From Methanofastidiosum sp. (GTDB lineage: Archaea > Methanobacteriota_B > Thermococci > Methanofastidiosales > Methanofastidiosaceae), in the NCBI GenBank assembly GCA_039679445.1, contig JBDKUY010000005.1, forward strand, positions 2,210-66,209: DNA of 64,000 bases, given 5' to 3'. Of this stretch, positions 5,330-15,190 are shown piece by piece. The position numbers and the translations under genes were made by a program. A model generated the notes under the pieces. It was not told where the DNA came from. It saw only the letters and a list, made by a program, of their open reading frames with translations, and did not search any database. Numbering within the stretch: position 1 is the stretch's first letter; the number at the start of each line of letters is the position of its first letter.

Positions 5330-8305
5330 TTATAGTATCATATCAAGAAGATACGAAAGCTGTTTTATTGGTTCGTTTAGGTCAGATACGTTAGCTGCGT
5401 TTAGGATGAGTATATCCTTTTTGCTGTAGATGTTCTTTTGGTATATCATTCCTTCAGAATCTGTGTCAACAAAGTTTCCAAGGTCATAGACTCTCTTTAT
5501 TTCTTCATTGTTGTCCTTGTTTCCAATGAGGATCATGTTGTATTTTGCTCTGTCAGTAGCTGTAATCTGCTTGTCAGTTCTTATCAAGTTTGTAGGCTCT
5601 ACTTTGACATTGACTGTTTCTTTCTTTGGAACGAGATCAACCCTTTGTATCTTGTATTTGACATAGTACTTCTCTTCATCGTAGTCTTCAACATAGACTC
5701 TAAAGTATCTATCTGGGCCCCAGAATACTGCACCTTCTTTAAGGCAATCAAATGGAATTGGGTCGCAAAGTTCTATCTTAATTGAGCGCAAATCCTTGGT
5801 GCAATCTTGGCATCTATCAACATAAGGACTATAGACATTGCCATCATTCATGAGGAATCTAAGTTTCCATCTGGAACCGTCATTTTGAATGTAATCGCAA
5901 TCGCAGTCATCAATGCAACCGTAGTCTATAAGGGTGTAAATATTGAATCGTGCAATCATATGCTCCTTTGTGTCGCCATCAATGTTTTTCTCTAAATCGT
6001 GCTCCATGCCTACGAAGGCAACATCTGCCCCTTCAATTGCAAACTCAACTTCCTCGGGATAGTTATCACAGTCAAGGTCTTTGTTGTATTCAACTACACA
6101 CTGGCAATCTGACGAAGCAATATCCGGCGATAGATTTGTACCAGGGCTCGGTGTGAAGTGTCTTATTGCAGAGCCATATATCTTTCCAGTGTTTTTATCC
6201 TGTAGGAAAGCGACCATACCGCAGTAGTTTGTGCCACAGAGATTGATTTCTGTTCTGTATACATCGCCGCCCTCTAAGTCCTTCCAGTTATAATCTGCAA
6301 CTTTTTCACTGCATTCTATTGTCCACCTATTGATATTCTGCCAGTATTGTGAAGCTATGAGCCCTGTAGCAACAGGTGCACAGCAATCGCAACTTATGCC
6401 CCATACATTAAGGTAAAGTTCTGTATTTGGAAGGTCTTTGTTTAATCTTACAGTTACTAGCGCTTCTTTATCTGTGGCAGTTGTAAATCTTTCAGGATCC
6501 ATATTGGTGTTTATGATTATCTTTGCATCACAGCAACTGCTGACATTTGATTCATAAGCTGCCTTGAATGCTTCATAATATGCATCTTCTGTATTTGGAG
6601 GTATTTTTTGAATTGCCTTTGATTTATTTCCGTTGAAGATTAATGTTGGATAGTTTACATTGTTTTTGGCATCGTATCCATATCCATATATGTATGCAGA
6701 CGGCCATCCACTACCATTATTTCCAAGGCCAAAATGATCTTTAGCAGAATCAATGTACAATGGGTCAATTCCTGATTCGCTTGTATTCGAATGGAATATA
6801 ATTGGAGTTATATCACAGAGATAGCCCTCTGTCTTCAATCTGCAAATTGCCTTTGTTGCAGCGTCAGAATCTGCTTGGGTGTCCACAAAAAGCTCAGCAA
6901 GTGTATTATCGCAGCAATCAACAGTCATTATGTGTCTTTTTACAATACCCTCTGAGTCTGTAACTTCAATAGTGACCTTCTTCTCTCCTAGATAATCCTT
7001 CCCAGTTTTGTGGTCAAAGTTAACTGTTGTCTGGCTCTTGTCCCAGTTGATATCTACTAATTTTACTTTATAATCGCCGTATGTCTTAGTCTGCCCAACT
7101 TTGAACTCTTCATCTTCCCATGTCCTTGGAGTTCCATAGAAAATTCTACCAACTGTTTTATCTGGAAAAGTTTGGTCGTCGTTATATTTGTACATTCTTA
7201 GGAGATTCACTTGTTGGCTTAGGAGGTTATAACTTGATGTTTCAACTGAGTAACTCTTTCCACCAGTCTGAATAAAGTCCCCTGGCAAAGTTTCTTTTAC
7301 CCCTTCAATCCAGTAGTCTAGGTTCTTTAGAAGATTTTTATCCTGGCTAAGAGTCTTATCTGCCCAAGTAAAATCAATGTAATAGGTATTTCCATATAAG
7401 ACTGAAAATGACTCGCCTTTTGTCTCTATTTCATATAGTGAATACGGCTGTGTTGGATTGGGTGGTGCATAGCTAGGTGGTGGCCATCCCCACCCACCAG
7501 AAAGTGGATTTAAGACTACCAATAAGGCATTTGTTGTAATAGGTTTTGTTAAAGTATACGTATCTGTTCTTTTTGTTGAACTACCTGTAACTGGCCATAT
7601 TATTCCTTGGGCCGGTAATTCAATCCAGTTCCCAGATATGCCATTATCTTCTACATAAGTATTTGGGCATAAGCTCTGAAGATAATATATTGTGTAACCT
7701 GCATTAGCTGGAACTGTAACTGTGTTCTCATGAGTAAAGTTTACATCTGTAATTGTTTTAAAATTGTTGAATTTAACTATCACATCTCTTTTGCTGTAAT
7801 ATAGTCCCCAATAATTATATCCTGTACTAGCGATAATTCTAGTATTCCTATCGCCATCGAATAGAGCATCCATACTCTCCACATAAAAAGGGCAGTTTGG
7901 CCAAGCAGGAGCATAGGGGGTTGGATCAAGATAGCTATGTGAGAAATAGTAACTTGGTGTGGTAAAAGATCTCGTGTCAATTATATAATCTAAGTTAGAT
8001 TTTACTCCTGTATACCCAAATGCAACATTATCATGGTCATCTTCAGTGAAGTTTCCAGACTCCCAGATTATCTTCTCCTCAGCTCCCGTCACACTGTAGT
8101 AAGTTTCATTTGTAAGTTTAGTTACAACTTCTGCCACTCTCTGTATGTCTTTTGCAGTTGCAGCTTCACTTACAACTATCAAAGCTTGAGGATTCCCATT
8201 TTCATCAATAAAGAAGTCTCTTCCAGGAAGCTCCTGCGCAGAGTAGTTTGGCACTAGAGACAATACAAAAGCTAATAATAAAAAAACAGAAATAATTTTT
8301 TTCAT
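5330..8305 (-). CDS. Large Cys-rich S-layer-type protein
   Basis: Signal peptide; N-terminal FFIDENGNPQALIVVSEAATAKD and C-terminal NMILIGNKDNN resemble Thermococcales/Methanococcales S-layer N and C domains; RBS AGGTGAG. Confidence 0.65.
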   Translation of the reverse strand: MKKIISVFLLLAFVLSLVPNYSAQELPGRDFFIDENGNPQALIVVSEAATAKDIQRVAEVVTKLTNETYYSVTGAEEKIIWESGNFTEDDHDNVAFGYTGVKSNLDYIIDTRSFTTPSYYFSHSYLDPTPYAPAWPNCPFYVESMDALFDGDRNTRIIASTGYNYWGLYYSKRDVIVKFNNFKTITDVNFTHENTVTVPANAGYTIYYLQSLCPNTYVEDNGISGNWIELPAQGIIWPVTGSSTKRTDTYTLTKPITTNALLVVLNPLSGGWGWPPPSYAPPNPTQPYSLYEIETKGESFSVLYGNTYYIDFTWADKTLSQDKNLLKNLDYWIEGVKETLPGDFIQTGGKSYSVETSSYNLLSQQVNLLRMYKYNDDQTFPDKTVGRIFYGTPRTWEDEEFKVGQTKTYGDYKVKLVDINWDKSQTTVNFDHKTGKDYLGEKKVTIEVTDSEGIVKRHIMTVDCCDNTLAELFVDTQADSDAATKAICRLKTEGYLCDITPIIFHSNTSESGIDPLYIDSAKDHFGLGNNGSGWPSAYIYGYGYDAKNNVNYPTLIFNGNKSKAIQKIPPNTEDAYYEAFKAAYESNVSSCCDAKIIINTNMDPERFTTATDKEALVTVRLNKDLPNTELYLNVWGISCDCCAPVATGLIASQYWQNINRWTIECSEKVADYNWKDLEGGDVYRTEINLCGTNYCGMVAFLQDKNTGKIYGSAIRHFTPSPGTNLSPDIASSDCQCVVEYNKDLDCDNYPEEVEFAIEGADVAFVGMEHDLEKNIDGDTKEHMIARFNIYTLIDYGCIDDCDCDYIQNDGSRWKLRFLMNDGNVYSPYVDRCQDCTKDLRSIKIELCDPIPFDCLKEGAVFWGPDRYFRVYVEDYDEEKYYVKYKIQRVDLVPKKETVNVKVEPTNLIRTDKQITATDRAKYNMILIGNKDNNEEIKRVYDLGNFVDTDSEGMIYQKNIYSKKDILILNAANVSDLNEPIKQLSYLLDMIL

Positions 8306-8314
8306 AAGCTCACC

Positions 8315-9280
8315 TTAATTTTGGAACGAATCTGTGTATTTCCACTCGATTCTCATGCCGTTAGCCACTTTAATATTGGAAATACCTAGTTGTGAATAGT
8401 CATTGTTAATCCAGTACTGCCAGTACCTTCCAGTTGACCTGTTTTCAGCAAGACCTTCTATGGAAGTTACAAAGACACCTAGCGATTGTATATTGTAGTC
8501 AAACTGCATTCCAGAAGCCTTCATCGCATCAAAGATTGTAGAGTCTTTTGGAACTTTCACATCCTTCCATTCTTTGGTGTAACTGTTCCCAAAGTCAGCT
8601 GTGATATTAACTGTAACGCTGTTTTTGTCTTCTGTAGTAGTTGTAGAAGCTGAGATTGCAGGAGCTTCTGAGGTGATAGTTATCTCATCTTTTTGAACAA
8701 ACTGGTCGCCGTTATTATCCTTCCACTTTAATAGCAGAAACTGCGAGTTCCCGTATTTCTGTAAGTTTGCCTGATCTTCTAGAATAAGCCCTGCTGCAAA
8801 AGTACCTTCCCTTGATGCACCCCATAGCATCAGGACATTTGAGTTATTTGACTTCCCAAAGTATATGATCCCTATGTCTTCCCCGGAGCCTATCTTTGGC
8901 TTAGAGAGAGTAAGGTCTTTTGTAGTGATCAATACTCTATCTTGAGTTTCCTCATACTTTATTCCAAAAACATCATTTAGCTCTTTTGTCTTGGAATTAA
9001 TTACTGGCCCTCCCACAACAACAAGCTGCTTATTTGAAGGTGCTTCAAAATCCAAAGAATTTGTGCTTAAAACACCCATTTCTTTGAAGCTTTTTGAGAC
9101 AGTATCCCTTGTAAGAAGGTCAAGCGAGTTTGCATTCTTCCCCGTTACAAAGACTGTGCCATTTGAGAATCCCGATTGAACGTTGCCTATACTCTCTGCG
9201 ATAAATGGAGATGGCAACTGCACTAATAATATAAGAAATACAAATAGTATATAGAAATTCCTAAACTTTATCCCTTTCAT
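8315..9280 (-). CDS. S-layer-anchored DUF4430 (transcobalamin-like) cobalamin-binding protein
   Basis: Signal peptide; S-layer-C-like VVVGGPVINS; C-terminal GVFVTSIEG..YWQYWINN..GI..G.RIEWKY typical of DUF4430; next to an ECF transporter. Confidence 0.78.
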   Translation of the reverse strand: MKGIKFRNFYILFVFLILLVQLPSPFIAESIGNVQSGFSNGTVFVTGKNANSLDLLTRDTVSKSFKEMGVLSTNSLDFEAPSNKQLVVVGGPVINSKTKELNDVFGIKYEETQDRVLITTKDLTLSKPKIGSGEDIGIIYFGKSNNSNVLMLWGASREGTFAAGLILEDQANLQKYGNSQFLLLKWKDNNGDQFVQKDEITITSEAPAISASTTTTEDKNSVTVNITADFGNSYTKEWKDVKVPKDSTIFDAMKASGMQFDYNIQSLGVFVTSIEGLAENRSTGRYWQYWINNDYSQLGISNIKVANGMRIEWKYTDSFQN

Positions 9281-9308
9281 TTTATTTTCCTCCGGTTTAA
9301 TATTGCTG

Positions 9309-9331
9309 TATGGATGGTGTAGCCATCCATA
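9309..9331. promoter_or_regulatory. Operator copy A: TATGGATGG-N5-CCATCCATA
   Basis: Perfect 9-bp arms directly next to the minus-strand TATA (ACTATATA) of the DUF4430/S-layer operon. Confidence 0.75.
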
Positions 9332-9371
9332 TATATAGTTTTCGGATTTAGAATTAGAAAAGGTTAAATAA

Positions 9372-9392
9372 TACGGATGGCTAGACCATCCA
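9372..9392. promoter_or_regulatory. Operator copy B: TACGGATGG-CTAGA-CCATCCA
   Basis: Directly after BRE/TATA AAAAGGTTAAATA (about 9358-9370) of the ECF operon. Confidence 0.7.
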
Positions 9393-9400
9393 GGGATAAA

Positions 9401-10327
9401 ATGCTCGAACTTGTCTACAAAAGAAAAAGGTCAGTCTTCCATGATGCCTCGCCATTTTTGAAAATGTCATGGCTTTTTTCTATCCTTATGATTTCTGTCA
9501 TCTTTGAGCACCCTATAATTCTGTTTATAATATTTCTATCTTCATTGCTTATGGCTTTGGTATCAAAGATTTTTGCTGATTGGGCAAGGGTAATGAAACT
9601 TGTGGTGTTCTTTGTTCCTTTCGTTATATTGTTTAATCTTTTGGTGAATGCTAATGGTGAGACGGTGCTTTGGCAGTTGCCTTTTAGAATCCCTATATTT
9701 GGCATACTAAATATTACCTTGGAAGAGCTCGCCTTTTCACTCACAATGTGTATAAGGATAGCTGCAATCTTGGGCGCTTTTGCAGTTCTAAATCTTACTA
9801 CCGATCCAGACGAACTTTTGAGCGCCGTAACAAAACTAAGGTTGCCATATAGATCTGTTGTTGTAACATCTCTTTCCACAAAATTCGTCCCTGTACTTTT
9901 TGTTGATTTGAAGAACATTCAGGAAGCCCAGAGATCCAGGGGTGTTGATTTCTCTAAAGGAAAACTCTTAGAGAGAATAAAAAAATACGGGGCCATCTTC
10001 TTTCCATTGCTTTCAAAAAGCCTCGATAGGAGCGTCCAGATTGCAGAGGCGATGGAAACTAGGGGATTTGGCAGATACGAAAGGAGAAGCTTCTACAAGG
10101 ATGCCAAAATTTCTGCCTCAGACATACTCCTAATAGTTGTATCAATCGCACCCCTGATTATATCCTTCTATATGGTATCTCGGGGAATTGGTGCCTTTAA
10201 ATTCTATCAAAGAATCGATCCCCTGATAAAATCAAGTTCTGAAGCATATTATATTGTAGCGATCCTTCTAGTCCAAGTTTTCCTATTACCATTGCTTAAA
10301 ATCAAAGGGATGATGACCTATGATTAA
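9401..10327 (+). CDS. ecfT: ECF transporter transmembrane component T
   Basis: Hydrophobic protein with EAQRSRG and AEAMETRGF Arg motifs; start placed at ATG 9401, downstream of the promoter. Confidence 0.92.
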   Translation: MLELVYKRKRSVFHDASPFLKMSWLFSILMISVIFEHPIILFIIFLSSLLMALVSKIFADWARVMKLVVFFVPFVILFNLLVNANGETVLWQLPFRIPIFGILNITLEELAFSLTMCIRIAAILGAFAVLNLTTDPDELLSAVTKLRLPYRSVVVTSLSTKFVPVLFVDLKNIQEAQRSRGVDFSKGKLLERIKKYGAIFFPLLSKSLDRSVQIAEAMETRGFGRYERRSFYKDAKISASDILLIVVSIAPLIISFYMVSRGIGAFKFYQRIDPLIKSSSEAYYIVAILLVQVFLLPLLKIKGMMTYD

Positions 10328-11972
10328 ATTCAATGATTTTTCTTTTTATTACCCTGATGCTGTCACACCCGCCCTCGATAAAATCAATGTCAGGATAGGT
10401 GAGGGCGAGTTCCTTGTCATAACGGGCCCTTCTGGTGGTGGGAAGTCAACATTTTTGAGGGCGATAAACGGTCTTATCCCAAATTTTTACGGCGGGAAAA
10501 TAAGTGGAGATGTACTAGTCCAAGGTAAGAATGCTTCTGAGACCCCGACAAACGAGATGTCAGAGCTCGTAGGGATGGTATTCCAAGACCCTGAAAACCA
10601 ACTCATATCGAATCAAGTCGAGAGGGAGATAGCCTTTGGCATGGAAAATCTCTGCTTCTCACAAGAGCTTATGAGAAAGAGGGTAGAGGAGGCGCTTGAC
10701 GCAGTAAACATTTCAAGGCTAAGAAACAGGACAACTTCAGAGCTTTCAGGCGGCCAGAAGCAAAAAGTTGCAATAGCATCTGCTCTGGCAATGCATCCAA
10801 GTATACTCTTGCTCGATGAGCCCACATCAGAGCTTGACCCAAGAAGCGCCGAAGATGTTCTAAACGTTATAGAAAAGATTAACGATGAGCTGGGCCTTAC
10901 AATACTGCTTGTTGAGCACAGATTAGAGCGAGTCATCCACCATGTAGACCGGATGTTAATGATCGATGGCGGCAAGCTGATCTATGACGGGAGCCCCAGA
11001 AAAATAAAATCAGCGCACATAGAGAACTGGAAAGTCGGGCTTCCCCCAGTGACAAGGCTATCGCTTCACTTCAAGGACAAAATAGCAAACAACGGGATAC
11101 CCCTCACTGTAAAGGAAGCTAGGCTTGCCCTAAAGGATGTCTTGAGTAATCCAAAGAAAAATATCGCTTGGGAGAGGAAAAATAGCTCCGGGAAAGTTTC
11201 AATTTCCTTGGAGAAAGTTTTCTTTTCATATGACGGCGAAAAGGACGTTTTGAAAAATATTTCATTTAAAGTTTACGAGGGGGATATGATTGCCCTTATG
11301 GGAAAGAATGCGAGCGGCAAAACTACACTTGTAAAGCTTATGAACGGTCTTGTAAAGCAGAGGAAGGGGAAGATAGAGCTCTTTGGCAAAAAGATTAATG
11401 ATTACTCGTTAGATGAGCTCATCCAAAAAGTTGGCATAGTATTTCAGGATCCTAACTTGCACCTTTTCAACGACACAGTCCAAGAGGAAGTTGCATTTGT
11501 ATTAAGGAATCTGGGTATGGAAAAAGAACAGATAGATAAGAAAGTAGAGGAGATACTCAGGCGATTTAAGATATACCAGTACAGAAACAGCTACCCACAT
11601 GATCTGTCTGGAGGGGAGCGGCAGAGGGTCGCACTTGCCTCAGTTCTAGTTTCGGAGCCGGAGATACTGATACTAGATGAGCCTACAAGGGGCATGGACT
11701 ATTTTCTAAAAAAAGAGCTGATTTCTTACCTAAAAGAAAAGGCCAAGACCGTTATCATGGTAACGCATGATGTTGAAACTGCGGCAGAATTTGCAGACAG
11801 AGTTGTCCTACTAAGTGAAGGCAACATCATTTCTGATGGCAATAAAAGAGATGTACTATCAAAGGCACTGCTCTTCTCTCCGCAAATTAATAGATTGGTG
11901 CAGCCCTACACTAAATATGGCATACCTGACGATACCTTGACAGTTGAGGAAGTATTAAAGGTGGTTGAATAA
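10320..11972 (+). CDS. ecfA: ECF transporter fused double ATPase (EcfA-EcfA')
   Basis: Two ABC domains: GPSGGGKST/LSGGQ/DEPT and GKNASGKTT/LSGGE/DEPT. Confidence 0.93.
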   Translation: MIKFNDFSFYYPDAVTPALDKINVRIGEGEFLVITGPSGGGKSTFLRAINGLIPNFYGGKISGDVLVQGKNASETPTNEMSELVGMVFQDPENQLISNQVEREIAFGMENLCFSQELMRKRVEEALDAVNISRLRNRTTSELSGGQKQKVAIASALAMHPSILLLDEPTSELDPRSAEDVLNVIEKINDELGLTILLVEHRLERVIHHVDRMLMIDGGKLIYDGSPRKIKSAHIENWKVGLPPVTRLSLHFKDKIANNGIPLTVKEARLALKDVLSNPKKNIAWERKNSSGKVSISLEKVFFSYDGEKDVLKNISFKVYEGDMIALMGKNASGKTTLVKLMNGLVKQRKGKIELFGKKINDYSLDELIQKVGIVFQDPNLHLFNDTVQEEVAFVLRNLGMEKEQIDKKVEEILRRFKIYQYRNSYPHDLSGGERQRVALASVLVSEPEILILDEPTRGMDYFLKKELISYLKEKAKTVIMVTHDVETAAEFADRVVLLSEGNIISDGNKRDVLSKALLFSPQINRLVQPYTKYGIPDDTLTVEEVLKVVE

Positions 11973-12664
11973 AACTAAGTGACTTATTCCCCTTAATCGT
12001 TGTGGCAATAGCTATACTCCTTTTCGGCGGAGGCTTAGTATTTGATGAGTCTAGGACAATAGTTAAGCTCTGGCCATATGAGATAATAGGTATTTTTGTC
12101 CTTGTGATATTTTCTTTTGTATACCAGTTTGAAAGAAAAGAATTCAGCACAAAGCAGCTTACGCTTATAGCGATGCTTTCTGGGATATCGGCAGTCTTAA
12201 GAATCCCATTTTCTAATTTTCAAGGGATACAGCCTTGCACCACGCTCATCATATGCTCTGGTCTTGTCTATGGTCCGATTGCAGGGTTTTTTGTGGGGGC
12301 TTTGACGCCATTTGTCTCAAACTTTTTTTTAGGCCACGGGCCGTGGACACCCTTACAGATGATAGGCTGGGGGCTTCCAGGGCTCGCAGCAGGTTACCTC
12401 GGTAAAAAAGATATAAACTTTAAATTCATTATTGTATTTGCAATTGCTTGGGGATTTCTCTACGGCTGGATAATGAATATTTGGCACTTTGCCTTTTTTG
12501 TGAAACCACATACATTTGAAACTTTTATTAGGACTTATGTTCTTAGTATTGCGTGGGATGTGAGCCATGCATTTGGCAACGGATTATTCATGGCAATAAT
12601 AGGTGAAAGGACAATTAAGATTCTAACAAGATACAAGAAAAGATTTACAATTGAAAGAATGTAG
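11969..12664 (+). CDS. cbrT: ECF S component, CbrT-like (cobalamin)
   Basis: IAML..LRIPF..IQPCT..GFFVGAL..VSNFFLGHGPWTPLQM..WDVSHAFGN; probable ATA start at 11969 (ORF track uses GTG 12002). Confidence 0.8.
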   Translation: MKLSDLFPLIVVAIAILLFGGGLVFDESRTIVKLWPYEIIGIFVLVIFSFVYQFERKEFSTKQLTLIAMLSGISAVLRIPFSNFQGIQPCTTLIICSGLVYGPIAGFFVGALTPFVSNFFLGHGPWTPLQMIGWGLPGLAAGYLGKKDINFKFIIVFAIAWGFLYGWIMNIWHFAFFVKPHTFETFIRTYVLSIAWDVSHAFGNGLFMAIIGERTIKILTRYKKRFTIERM

Positions 12665-12799
12665 TTATTCTTTATGTTGGATGGTCTTACTTTTGCAGAA
12701 GTGGCAAATGTGATCTTTCACAGGATAAAGGTAACATTTGCACTTGGGGCAATATTCCCTGACATCTTTGGGGAAATTTATAATGACTTTATTCTTCAA
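12665..12799 (-). CDS. 44-aa Cys4 zinc-finger micro-protein (MKNKVIINFPKDVREYCPKCKCYLYPVKDHICHFCKSKTIQHKE)
   Basis: Manual translation; TTG start after GAGGT; CPKC and CHFC knuckles; overlaps the stop of the upstream micro-ORF. Confidence 0.65.
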   Translation of the reverse strand: MKNKVIINFPKDVREYCPKCKCYLYPVKDHICHFCKSKTIQHKE

Positions 12800-12908
12800 T
12801 TATAACTACCTCTAGGGTCTCGCTATTTGCGATTGCAGTAATGATTGATATCAATTTATTAGCTTTTTCATTATTCAAATCTTTCTTTGATATTTCAATC
12901 CACAACAT
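12789..12908 (-). CDS. 39-aa micro-protein (MLWIEISKKDLNNEKANKLISIITAIANSETLEVVIIEE)
   Basis: Manual translation; ATG overlaps the end of the upstream ORF and its stop overlaps the next start, suggesting translational coupling. Confidence 0.5.
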   Translation of the reverse strand: MLWIEISKKDLNNEKANKLISIITAIANSETLEVVIIEE

Positions 12909-13038
12909 AGACGCTCTCTCTTTTCGAGTAGTTATTATTTGATTCTAATTGGGAAATATATCTTTCATAGCATTCTTCGCAGATTATGTAAATATCCTTT
13001 TCTAATTCACATTTACAAATAATGCATTTATTGTTCAT
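12895..13038 (-). CDS. 47-aa Cys4 zinc-finger micro-protein (MNNKCIICKCELEKDIYIICEECYERYISQ...)
   Basis: CIIC and CEEC knuckles; ATG 13038 lies about 25 nt downstream of TATA, so probably leaderless. Confidence 0.65.
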   Translation of the reverse strand: MNNKCIICKCELEKDIYIICEECYERYISQLESNNNYSKRESVYVVD

Positions 13039-13060
13039 ATGGATGGTGTCGCCATCCATA
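13038..13060. promoter_or_regulatory. Operator copy C: TATGGATGG-TGTCG-CCATCCATA
   Basis: 22/23 identical to copy A; between minus-strand TATA (TTTATATA, 13069-13062) and the micro-protein ATG. Confidence 0.75.
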
Positions 13061-13158
13061 ATATATAAATATTTCTGTAACTTCGACGTAAAATGCAGAA
13101 AATCAGTCATGGGGAAAAGTTTATAAATTCCCTAAAATATTCACTTCTTATTAGGTAA

Positions 13159-13233
13159 GCCGCGGTCGCCTAGCCTGGGAGGGCGCCAGACTGAAGATCT
13201 GGTATTCCGCTGGTTCAAATCCGGCCCGCGGCA
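13159..13233 (+). tRNA. tRNA-Phe (GAA)
   Basis: Acceptor GCCGCGG/CCGCGGC-A, anticodon arm CCAGA-CTGAAGA-TCTGG, T loop TTCAAAT; CCA not encoded. Confidence 0.96.
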
Positions 13234-13310
13234 CTTTAAACTTTTTTAAATATTACATTCAAATCGTTCATTTTATATTCCTTGTTTTCCTTTTCATTAT
13301 TGGTGTTATA

Positions 13311-13634
13311 ATGAAAGATGGCGTATTTTACGGAAAAGGAGTAAACAAAATAAAAAATGAATATCCTGAGATATACGAAGCTATAGTAAAACTTGACGAA
13401 GCAGTTTTCACTGGAAAAGTCTTAGATTATAGAACCCAGAAATTAGTTGCACTTGGAATAACAGCAGCTAGAGCAGATGAAAGCGCAACAAAAAGACAGA
13501 TTATGTCAGGTATGAATGAATTTAATATAACAAAGGACGAGATAGTTGATGTCTTAAGAGTCGTCCTCTTAACTTCAGGCATGCCTGCATTTAACAAAGG
13601 GATGAGAATCTTAGATGAGATAGAAAAACAATAA
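13311..13634 (+). CDS. Carboxymuconolactone decarboxylase (CMD/AhpD-like) family protein
   Basis: LDYRTQKLVALGITAA..ITKDEIVDVL..SGMPA. Confidence 0.8.
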   Translation: MKDGVFYGKGVNKIKNEYPEIYEAIVKLDEAVFTGKVLDYRTQKLVALGITAARADESATKRQIMSGMNEFNITKDEIVDVLRVVLLTSGMPAFNKGMRILDEIEKQ

Positions 13635-13716
13635 TTTTCTACCTTTACTTTTTATTAATCTTAATTCTTATATATAGCAAACTCAATCTATGCCTTAGAG
13701 CCAAGAGAGTGTTTAG

Positions 13717-14127
13717 ATGAAAGACGTTGAAATAAAGTGCCCGCATTGCGACAAGAAGATTATAATACCTGAGAGCCTTCTAGTAAAAATTATAGAAAAA
13801 TACCAACATGATAACGCAGGAGAAAAGAAATCTGAAATGTTCGCCCCAGTAGATCAGACTCAAGAAACTTCGGCCACCAAAGAACTAGAAAATGAGCTTA
13901 CCGTAAAGGAGGAGCAGCTAGCAGAGGTGATGTCAAAGCTTGAAAGAAACCAGGCTGATTTTACAAGGGTCGTTAAGAGGAACGTGAAACCTGAGGATAT
14001 GTACCGGATACAGAAGGATAGGACAATTCTTATGCAGAAGGCAAAGAACCTCCAAGAAGAAATAGCTGCAATAAATAATCAACTTGGCAAACAAAATAAT
14101 AAATCAAGTAAGGTAAAATATCTTTAA
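13717..14127 (+). CDS. Hypothetical protein with CPHC knuckle and coiled coil
   Basis: ORF with heptad-rich C-terminus. Confidence 0.6.
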   Translation: MKDVEIKCPHCDKKIIIPESLLVKIIEKYQHDNAGEKKSEMFAPVDQTQETSATKELENELTVKEEQLAEVMSKLERNQADFTRVVKRNVKPEDMYRIQKDRTILMQKAKNLQEEIAAINNQLGKQNNKSSKVKYL

Positions 14128-14789
14128 TCTTTTAAGCCATATATCTCAACATCAGACCTATCAAAACCTTTATCAAAAATATCGATATATTTGATAATAT
14201 CTTCAAAATGATTTCTTATTTTGGTATTTTCTTCACCATATGGATAGTATGCAAAGAAAAGAAAGTTCTTAGTTTTCTCTGTGATCATTGTCCTTCTATC
14301 TAGCCCAAACAATACACTTGATATTATGTCAAATCCATCTTCTGATACAATATCTTCTGGCTTTAACTTCATCTCTTTTCCGCTGATGTTCACATACTCT
14401 TCGTTGCCTTTTGTTATCTTTGTACTCAAGCTGCCCTTGATTAGGTCAAGGTCATGGCCGGCTGTAAGATACATATTCTTTAGCTCAGCCATAAACATCG
14501 CCTCAACAACAGTATACTGTGAAGGGAAACTCTTGCCACTGGCTATCGATTTAATCTGGTATTCAATCGGGTACTTCTTTTCAAATTTCTTAAAGAACAG
14601 GCTATATTTTTTTATAGTCTTAGATTCTAGGTAATCTTTAGCATTATTTCGGATATCTGCTTCAATCCTTCTCTTTTCCTTCTCTAGGGATTCATCAACT
14701 TTTTTATTTTCTAAATTTCTAACTTCCATCGTAGAAACTTTTAGATCGGGAAAATAATCCGCCAAATTCTTTGAAACATCTACCTTCAT
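14124..14789 (-). CDS. Stand-alone B3/B4 (PheRS beta editing-like) domain protein
   Basis: VVEAMFMAELKNMYLTAGHDLD..EEY..ISG..DIV..IISSVLFG.DRRT.ITEKT. Confidence 0.72.
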   Translation of the reverse strand: MKVDVSKNLADYFPDLKVSTMEVRNLENKKVDESLEKEKRRIEADIRNNAKDYLESKTIKKYSLFFKKFEKKYPIEYQIKSIASGKSFPSQYTVVEAMFMAELKNMYLTAGHDLDLIKGSLSTKITKGNEEYVNISGKEMKLKPEDIVSEDGFDIISSVLFGLDRRTMITEKTKNFLFFAYYPYGEENTKIRNHFEDIIKYIDIFDKGFDRSDVEIYGLKD

Positions 14790-14881: not shown

Positions 14882-15190
14882 ATGATCTGTAAAAATTGTG
14901 GCAAGGAGATAGAAGACACTGCGAAATTCTGCCCAGAGTGCGGCTCTTCAACGGCAAAGAGGGATGAATTTTACGTGGATTCTGATCATCTGGTAGAGGA
15001 GATAAAGAAGATTATCGATGAGGGGATTGCAACAAGAATTATTATAAAAGATGAGGCCGATAAAACGCTTCTAGATATTCCTTTAGCAGCAGGTGTCGTG
15101 GGAGCATTGATTGCCCCATGGCTTGCAGCTCTTGGTGCAATAGCTGCGCTTGTTGTAAAATGCAAGATAGTTGTAGAGAAACCAAATTAA
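14882..15190 (+). CDS. Zinc-ribbon plus DUF4342 protein
   Basis: CKNCG..AKFCPECG; IKKIIDEG..RIIIK..LDIPL..GVVG..AALGAIAAL..CKIVVE. Confidence 0.8.
   Translation: MICKNCGKEIEDTAKFCPECGSSTAKRDEFYVDSDHLVEEIKKIIDEGIATRIIIKDEADKTLLDIPLAAGVVGALIAPWLAALGAIAALVVKCKIVVEKPN

Follow-up and report, generated by a model that had tools for sequence, protein, structure and literature searches.

What lies between a transporter gene and a tRNA gene in Methanofastidiosum, an uncultured methanogen common in digesters, and what could it be doing there? The DNA considered here (the window) is a stretch of 64,000 nucleotides (nt) from contig C5 of a 1.62 Mb, 94%-complete Methanofastidiosum sp. genome. Between the gene of an energy-coupling factor (ECF) S component, called cbrT below, and that of tRNA-Phe, its minus strand from 12665 to 13038 is tiled by three overlapping open reading frames (ORFs) of 47, 39, and 44 amino acids (aa). 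A reading made from the letters alone (the sequence-only reading) had described these as a hidden operon of micro-proteins, two of them zinc fingers, and had taken them for effectors of the regulon that also controls the transporter. We find that the first and third frames are very likely real genes and that the operon quite likely belongs to a corrinoid (vitamin B12) regulon, whereas the role of its products can only be proposed tentatively.

Three overlapping frames and two cysteine fingers

The tiling itself is confirmed by the ORF coordinates (Table 1). ORF1 and ORF2 share 14 nt (12895-12908) and ORF2 and ORF3 share 11 nt (12789-12799), and both overlaps are conserved. Both ends are as tightly packed as had been described: the ATG of ORF1 at 13038 touches the palindrome at 13039-13059 (the earlier reader's operator copy C), and ORF3 converges with cbrT, so that the two stop codons (12665-12667 and 12662-12664) touch with zero spacer. 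Hidden, on the other hand, the operon is only in part. The exact ORF3 sequence is absent from public gene calls, but the 47-aa ORF1 and the 39-aa ORF2 had already been called, ORF1 appearing as a 47-aa hypothetical protein in NCBI annotations of metagenome-assembled genomes. The ORF1 frame is open up to 13110 (12895-13110), and some annotations give versions of 54, 55, or 71 aa. We rejected these, as the extra codons (MDGDTIH) coincide with the operator: not even their third positions vary, and they turn up 5' of unrelated genes as well (e.g., at loci L048 and L094). A single frameshifted gene (a pseudogene) was rejected as well, given that the ORFs have separate starts and conserved overlaps, that one clade has ORF3 by itself, and that there is no long relative.

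A DNA search of 41 genomes matched the region in other species of the genus at 74-96% identity, and outside the genus matched its tRNA part only. Eleven homologous loci from other species of the genus (L002-L012) served for comparison, using ratios of nonsynonymous to synonymous change (dN/dS; pooled Nei-Gojobori estimates from intact copies only, which is a selection bias). ORF3 is intact in all 11 loci and is under strong purifying selection, with a dN/dS of 0.058 (0.04 in its non-overlapping part) versus 1.57 and 1.35 in the shifted frames. ORF1 is intact (47-48 aa) in 9 of the 11; L010 has a 36-nt in-frame deletion together with a decayed operator, and L011 has other DNA in its place. Its dN/dS is 0.22, versus 0.57 and 0.53 in the shifted frames, and purifying selection on its finger (codons 1-27) is clear: the proportion of nonsynonymous differences is 0.13 and that of synonymous differences 0.77 (saturated), with a dN/dS of 0.47 in the tail. 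We consider ORF1 and ORF3 very likely to be real genes. Frame and cysteine conservation and dN/dS in related genomes had been proposed as the check on the sequence-only reading, and for ORF3 in particular this check comes out in its favor.

ORF2 is a different matter. It is intact (39 aa) in 8 of the 11 loci, with breaks in L008 and L010 and a truncation in L011, and its dN/dS is 0.32 versus 0.42 and 1.11 in the shifted frames (0.35 versus 0.65 and 1.21 over non-overlapping codons). It is therefore fair to ask whether only ORF3, and probably ORF1, are functional, with ORF2 being an unselected or decaying frame that covers the former leader of ORF3 and its ribosome-binding region. The narrow distance to one alternative frame (0.32-0.35 versus 0.42-0.65) is in line with this, as is the ORF2 3' end, GAGGTAGTT, which is the ribosome-binding region of ORF3. 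Moreover, ORF3 persists where ORF2 is broken or absent (genomes G002, G005, G010, and G013) or truncated (G001). In a Monte Carlo simulation with the same number of randomly placed changes, the frame stayed open with P 0.21-0.74 per genome, so that its retention is not individually significant. Against this stand nine genomes in which ORF2, with its conserved ATG, runs for exactly 39 codons free of stops, compared with 50 and 56 stops in the other two frames, and a distribution of variable sites over the codon positions of 13, 11, and 20. A nonfunctional ORF2 is thus a lesser possibility, though one to be taken seriously; ORF2 is probably a real gene and, because of the Monte Carlo result, no more than probably coding.

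The start of ORF3 is well supported by sequence comparison. Although the whole frame lacks an ATG, the TTG start is invariant in 12 aligned loci, and the ribosome-binding site reads GAGGT in 10 of these and GGGGT in 2. Lineages with ORF3 alone start at the same position with GTG, ATG, or TTG, behind the same GAGGT(A/T)GTT.

That two of the three products are Cys4 fingers was borne out. Both have the spacing C-x2-C-x11-C-x2-C, and the four cysteines are invariant in each: C5, C8, C20, and C23 in 10 of 10 ORF1 copies, and C17, C20, C32, and C35 in 12 of 12 ORF3 copies. The latter are also invariant in the three clusters that the ORF3 profile found among 1.84 billion representative proteins, namely P0001 (the form of the genus), P0002 (59 aa), and P0003 (81 aa), and the ORF3 core can be written as REYCPKC-x11-CxFCK(S/T)KT. 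The motif CxxCKC, which the fingers had been said to share, did not hold up: in place of the third cysteine, two of the 10 ORF1 copies have Phe, and P0002 and P0003 have Ala. For an origin of the fingers by duplication we found a weak sign (hhalign, 24% probability over 21 finger columns), so that this origin is no more than possible.

The AlphaFold2 model of ORF3 is a small beta-hairpin ribbon (pLDDT, the predicted score of the local distance difference test, 69.8), while that of ORF1 is poor (58.9). Foldseek with the ORF3 model returned generic zinc ribbons only, all below threshold (Nop10 best, at E 0.6; also Spt4, RpoP, and L40e), and an ESM Atlas search with ORF3 gave unrelated small zinc-ribbon and hypothetical clusters at 0.88-0.90. 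In Pfam, ORF3 stays below the gathering cut-offs of zf-LITAF-like (PF10601, 14.8 versus 23.8 bits) and zf-ChsH2 (PF12172, 12.9 versus 23.2 bits), and for ORF1 and ORF2 there is nothing at E up to 1; among PHROGs nothing exceeded the threshold for the micro-proteins, and ORF2 had no match at all. ORF1 and ORF3 are stand-alone and shorter than 70 aa, the size used to define archaeal zinc-finger micro-proteins, and like these carry two invariant CxxC pairs. The C(P)XCG knuckle of the Haloferax definition is absent, as CPKCK and CHFCK in ORF3 and CIICK and CEECY in ORF1 have no Gly after the second Cys. We infer that ORF1 and ORF3 are structural-zinc ribbons. A co-folding prediction of the three proteins together (score 0.03, mark 0.32) counts neither way.

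The operator and its corrinoid regulon

On the coding strand, the elements in front of ORF1 follow each other as TTTATATA (13069-13062), two bases, ATGGATGGCGACACCATCCAT, and the ATG. The palindrome is invariant in 9 of the 11 loci, with one change in L012 and degeneration in L010, where ORF1 has decayed. Because this invariance extends to positions that would be synonymous in the longer versions of ORF1, the palindrome is a DNA signal and not a run of codons. Going by the usual archaeal distance from TATA box to start, transcription probably begins at about 13038, and the ORF1 mRNA is hence probably leaderless. Archaeal repressors placed between the TATA box and the start block polymerase recruitment.

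Five copies of the box (GGATGG-N5-CCATCC) occur in the genome, compared with none of the reversed pattern used as a control. Two of them (9310 and 9373) lie 63 nt apart between the DUF4430 gene and the ECF operon, which according to Pfam encodes a CbiQ-type T component, a fused ATPase, and the S component. The name CbrT and the cobalamin specificity of this S component are inferred from context. One further box lies upstream of a 214-aa B12-binding corrinoid protein and another upstream of a fusion of a URO-D methyltransferase with a B12-binding domain. The order of TATA box, then operator, is the same at 13039, 9310, 9373, and C68:56355; at C53:8030 there are TATA-like tracts nearby on both strands and the layout is ambiguous.

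The box core is present at 1-6 sites in 17 of 17 genomes of the genus (reversed control 0). At the 10 + 12 loci examined, its neighbors are the same genes as in the genome at hand, with the addition of CbiM in G005 and G014; at one locus (L099) no ORF of at least 70 aa stands beside the box. The micro-operons of G005 and G009 lie away from cbrT, keep their box, and are divergent from a Peripla_BP_2 lipoprotein gene. Another genus, of a different family of the order, has 4, 4, and 1 boxes in its three genomes (including G021 and G024). In these two the boxes precede a Peripla_BP_2 gene, a MobA-like NTP transferase gene with CobS, a class I/II aminotransferase gene with a CbiA-type gene, and ECF S components. 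The Pfam families beside boxes are thus CbiQ, ECF_trnsprt, DUF4430, B12-binding, URO-D+B12-binding_2, CbiM, Peripla_BP_2, CobS, and CbiA-type. In a third family, most sites fall within coding DNA of high GC content and seem fortuitous, the exception being the TATA-flanked L108. At class level, in Thermococcaceae, the box is near background (6 of 57 genomes with one site each, control matches in 4). Judging from these neighborhoods, the box, always with a TATA-like box beside it, marks a corrinoid regulon that spans two families of the order or more. The box loci of relatives that mark it are L112, L116, L117, and L111.

The micro-operon quite likely belongs to this regulon in the present lineage. 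That it shares a regulon with the ECF operon, as had been claimed, stands, since both carry the operator; that the regulon is one of cobalt and zinc homeostasis does not, because the genes under the box serve corrinoid import, salvage, and use. Neither CbiC nor CobS was detected in the 94%-complete genome, and the organism therefore probably imports finished corrinoids; it looks like a corrinoid auxotroph.

These observations also bear on the idea that the micro-proteins are cobalt or zinc buffers or metallochaperones. One might point to the four invariant cysteines of each finger, to the cobalt importer CbiM carrying a box in G005 and G014, and to the URO-D-type methyltransferases of the regulon, which are, as general knowledge has it, zinc enzymes. 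However, a single C4 site per 44-47 aa, set in a zinc ribbon of generic shape, is what marks structural zinc rather than storage, the regulon is centered on the finished cofactor, and the genome apparently lacks synthesis of the corrin ring, the step that needs cobalt delivery. A role as metal buffer or chaperone, suggested in the sequence-only reading, thus has found no specific support and seems quite improbable.

Could the micro-proteins themselves read the palindrome, as its regulator or essential co-regulator in the form of an autoregulated zinc-ribbon DNA-binding module? An operator on the own promoter is the classic layout of an autoregulated repressor. In addition, the five B12-binding domains of the genome all belong to enzymes or corrinoid proteins by frame length, and none is fused to a DNA-binding domain. 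Nevertheless, G021 and G024 use a TATA-adjacent box before BtuF-like, CobS, and CobD/CobQ-like genes while no relative of ORF1-3 was found in them; G001, G010, and G013 have lost ORF1 and ORF2 and still keep 3-4 boxes; and ORF3 itself is box-free in the clade that has it alone. As the box is used in genomes that lack the three ORFs, this is the least probable of the explanations considered and can be largely set aside.

The operator idea as such may already be known. Rodionov et al. (J Biol Chem 2003) reportedly predicted a CBL-box, a DNA operator and not a B12 riboswitch, 5' of archaeal cobalamin transport and synthesis genes and assigned to a hypothetical B12 regulator. To our knowledge, no micro-protein genes belonged to that regulon. 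A literature search found no account of these micro-proteins or of the GGATGG-N5-CCATCC box, nor of a relevant archaeal B12 regulator, and in an Rfam scan of 8000-14500 nothing except the tRNA reached threshold, so that no B12 riboswitch was found there.

Some neighbors under the box deserve mention in their own right. The 321-aa protein encoded at 8315-9280 (minus strand) has an S-layer outer domain and, at its C-terminus, DUF4430, and its gene adjoins that of a 991-aa S-layer-like protein (5330-8305, minus strand). Both are divergent from the ECF operon under the same box, and they may serve corrinoid capture at the cell surface. The URO-D-type methyltransferase fused to a B12-binding module (L018 1609-3021, on G000:C68; open frame about 594 aa) unites methyltransferase and corrinoid protein in one polypeptide and is boxed in every genome of the genus that was examined.

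Table 1. Coordinates of the micro-operon, its signals, its neighbors, and the operator copies (window positions unless a contig is named)
Feature	Position	Strand	Remarks
ORF1	12895-13038	-	47 aa from ATG 13038 (MNNKCIICKC...CEEC); C4 finger, poorly conserved tail
ORF2	12789-12908	-	39 aa, ATG start, Cys-free; least secure of the three
ORF3	12665-12799	-	44 aa, TTG start, whole frame without ATG; C4 zinc ribbon; core gene of the locus
GAGGT ribosome-binding site	12808-12812	-	8 nt 5' of the ORF3 start codon (12797-12799)
Palindromic operator, 21 bp (copy C)	13039-13059		ATGGATGG-N5-CCATCCAT, perfect palindrome
TATA-like box TTTATATA	13062-13069	-	3' end 24 nt 5' of ATG 13038
Operator copy	9310-9330		precedes the gene of the DUF4430/S-layer-domain surface protein (8315-9280, -)
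Operator copy, 2 mismatches in outer bases	9373-9393		in front of the ECF operon (9377-12664, +)
Remaining operator copies	G000:C53:8030-8050; G000:C68:56355-56375		
ECF S component (cbrT)	12002-12664	+	Pfam ECF_trnsprt, E 1.2e-15
tRNA-Phe	13159-13234		

Distribution, probable losses, and the proposed role

Six-frame profile searches covered 34 genomes of the order: the genome at hand, 16 others of the genus, and 17 of other genera. Among the 16, ORF3 is present in 14 (the copy of G009 being cut by a contig end), ORF1 in 12 (G013 has a remnant), and ORF2 in 10 (partial in G001). None of the three matched in G008 and G015, which are 85-86% complete; for G008 the absence likely reflects an assembly gap, because a metagenome contig with an identical cbrT protein carries ORF1 and ORF3 (L077-L079). 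In the 17 genomes of other genera, the ORF1 and ORF3 profiles matched nowhere and none of the three ORFs matched at E < 0.005; the ORF2 profile gave two marginal 19-residue matches (E 0.007-0.01), which we take as chance. Relatives of ORF1 among 5.8 billion proteins are all hypothetical proteins of Methanofastidiosum with 47-72 aa, plus one 90-aa call that is an upstream-extended version of the same frame. The three-cistron micro-operon is specific to the genus Methanofastidiosum.

A few apparent relatives were discarded. The 90%-identity cluster of ORF1 contains, as a clustering artefact, a chorismate synthase of 392 aa and a related protein of 252 aa, neither of them with any sequence in common with ORF1, and two matches of the metagenome scan (L084 and L085) are long membrane proteins with nothing but the common motif CPKC...CYFCKT, a chance likeness.

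Within the genus the operon has probably been pruned. In the clade that has ORF3 alone, the alignment shows one indel of about 220 nt that takes out precisely the box and ORF1 together with most of ORF2, while the TATA box is spared along with the ribosome-binding region of ORF3; ORF3 is there outside the regulon, with a TATA box and no palindrome. In a cbrT tree (midpoint-rooted and poorly resolved), these genomes form one supported clade (96/88) nested among genomes with three ORFs. This nesting suggests that ORF1 and ORF2 were lost in the clade, with further separate losses in G001 and G013.

Distant ORF3 relatives of 59-63 aa occur at L065 245-421 and L066 6001-6192. These P0002 loci hold numerous small Cys-rich ORFs along with one that is TnpB-like and a weak HNH match, with no box and no B12 genes; their setting is probably a mobile element or a virus. 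Are the micro-protein genes then simply young, possibly derived from a mobile element, with no corrinoid role and with the ORF1 operator as a by-product of promoter duplication? The confinement of the family to one genus and two metagenomic clusters would fit, and so would the company of the distant relative and the repeated loss of ORF1 and ORF2. Yet the ORF1 operator has stayed invariant in 9 of the 11 loci and is kept in G005 and G009 away from cbrT, while ORF3 is under very strong purifying selection and stays at the 3' end of cbrT in most genomes. We therefore regard this explanation as improbable.

What we propose instead is a micro-operon that would be switched together with the corrinoid regulon in an organism apparently unable to make corrinoids. 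A leaderless ORF1 mRNA would start at about the A of ATG 13038, and a repressor, bound between the TATA box and the start, would block polymerase recruitment. ORF2 and ORF3 would be translated by coupling or re-initiation at the overlaps. As structural-zinc ribbons, ORF1 and ORF3 would act by binding a partner, the likeliest being part of the machinery for corrinoid import or methyl transfer, as with the micro-proteins MtrR and sP36 discussed below. ORF3 would be the core factor, and ORF1 and ORF2 dispensable accessories that bring it under the B12 switch.

Several observations weigh against this proposal. ORF1 and/or ORF2 are lost or broken in G001, G002, G005, G010, and G013 and hence dispensable, and in one clade (G010, L067-L071) the TATA box is followed by ORF3 only, the operator being absent. 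P0002 sits in a mobile-element-like locus devoid of B12 genes, which speaks against a strictly B12-linked role. The dN/dS estimates come from intact copies, with the bias mentioned above, and the coding evidence for ORF2 (dN/dS and Monte Carlo) is weak. In metatranscriptomes, the best RNA runs held 7-12% of words, and contigs were obtained on the ECF T and ATPase genes only (9794-11964), with none on 12000-13300. No partner protein was identified.

On balance, we give the explanation as a whole, a genus-specific micro-operon under a corrinoid switch that encodes partner-binding ribbons, an even chance. That the products are small protein-binding modulators of corrinoid uptake or methyl transfer is a tentative suggestion by analogy, drawn from the membership in the regulon, from fingers that look like those of structural zinc, and from MtrR and sP36 as precedents; of the roles offered in the sequence-only reading, that of a transporter modulator is a reasonable guess. 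More speculative still is the fuller picture, in which zinc-ribbon micro-proteins would provide lineage-specific post-translational control of corrinoid import or of corrinoid-dependent methyltransferases under a riboswitch-free, order-wide B12 operator regulon, with ORF3, tail-to-tail with the S-component gene, as the core.

Other genes were noted around the operon. A 186-aa TrmO-family gene directly behind ORF3 lies between ORF3 and cbrT in G013 (L010) and replaces cbrT in G005 (L026) and G014 (L006). Beyond the tRNA, on the plus strand, the window encodes a 136-aa zinc-ribbon protein (13717-14127) that has a CPHC ribbon at its N-terminus (matching Brz-ribbon weakly, E 0.097) and a tail resembling a coiled coil, and a 102-aa protein (14882-15190) with Zn_Ribbon_1 and DUF4342.

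Comparison with known small proteins

No part of archaeal genomes is charted less well than their small proteins, and a functional context for these is rare. Here, clear evolutionary support for ORF1 and ORF3 comes together with a concrete regulatory context, i.e., an operator held in common with genes of corrinoid import and methyl transfer. The narrow range (one genus) limits the reach of the finding. Still, it offers a handle on what such fingers bind and on how corrinoid supply is sensed in an archaeon that apparently lacks B12 riboswitches.

With Nop10, Spt4, RpoP, L40e, zf-LITAF-like, and zf-ChsH2, ORF3 shares two CxxC knuckles on a small beta-hairpin scaffold (going by its model). It is a member of none of these families, however, all matches being below threshold.

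MtrA is the corrinoid-carrying subunit within the methyltransferase complex Mtr. In Methanosarcina mazei, MtrA is bound by MtrR, a micro-protein of 49 aa described as oligomeric and membrane-associated (PMC13370731), and in the same species sP36 binds an ammonium transporter (PMC10714827). Like the proteins discussed here, both are micro-proteins of methanogens, and according to the excerpts of these reports each binds a large partner and is transcriptionally regulated together with the pathway that it tunes. There is no homology, however, and the excerpt on MtrR does not describe it as a Cys4 finger.

Closest in kind are the one-domain zinc-finger micro-proteins of Haloferax volcanii (e.g., HVO_2753 and HVO_0758), which the excerpts consulted present as mostly without assigned function and lineage-restricted (PMC6562870, PMC10716476). 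Both sets consist of stand-alone archaeal proteins of less than 70 aa with two Cys pairs at their core. No relation in sequence was found between them, and whereas the Haloferax proteins, as described in those excerpts, have two C(P)XCG motifs, the pairs here are CPKCK/CHFCK and CIICK/CEECY without the Gly. Moreover, the same excerpts report none of the Haloferax proteins as part of an overlapping three-gene operon or as tied to a B12 operator. ORF1 and ORF3 thus add new, genus-restricted families to the archaeal zinc-finger micro-proteins, and what is new about them is their context, namely an overlapping three-gene micro-operon wired to a corrinoid operator.

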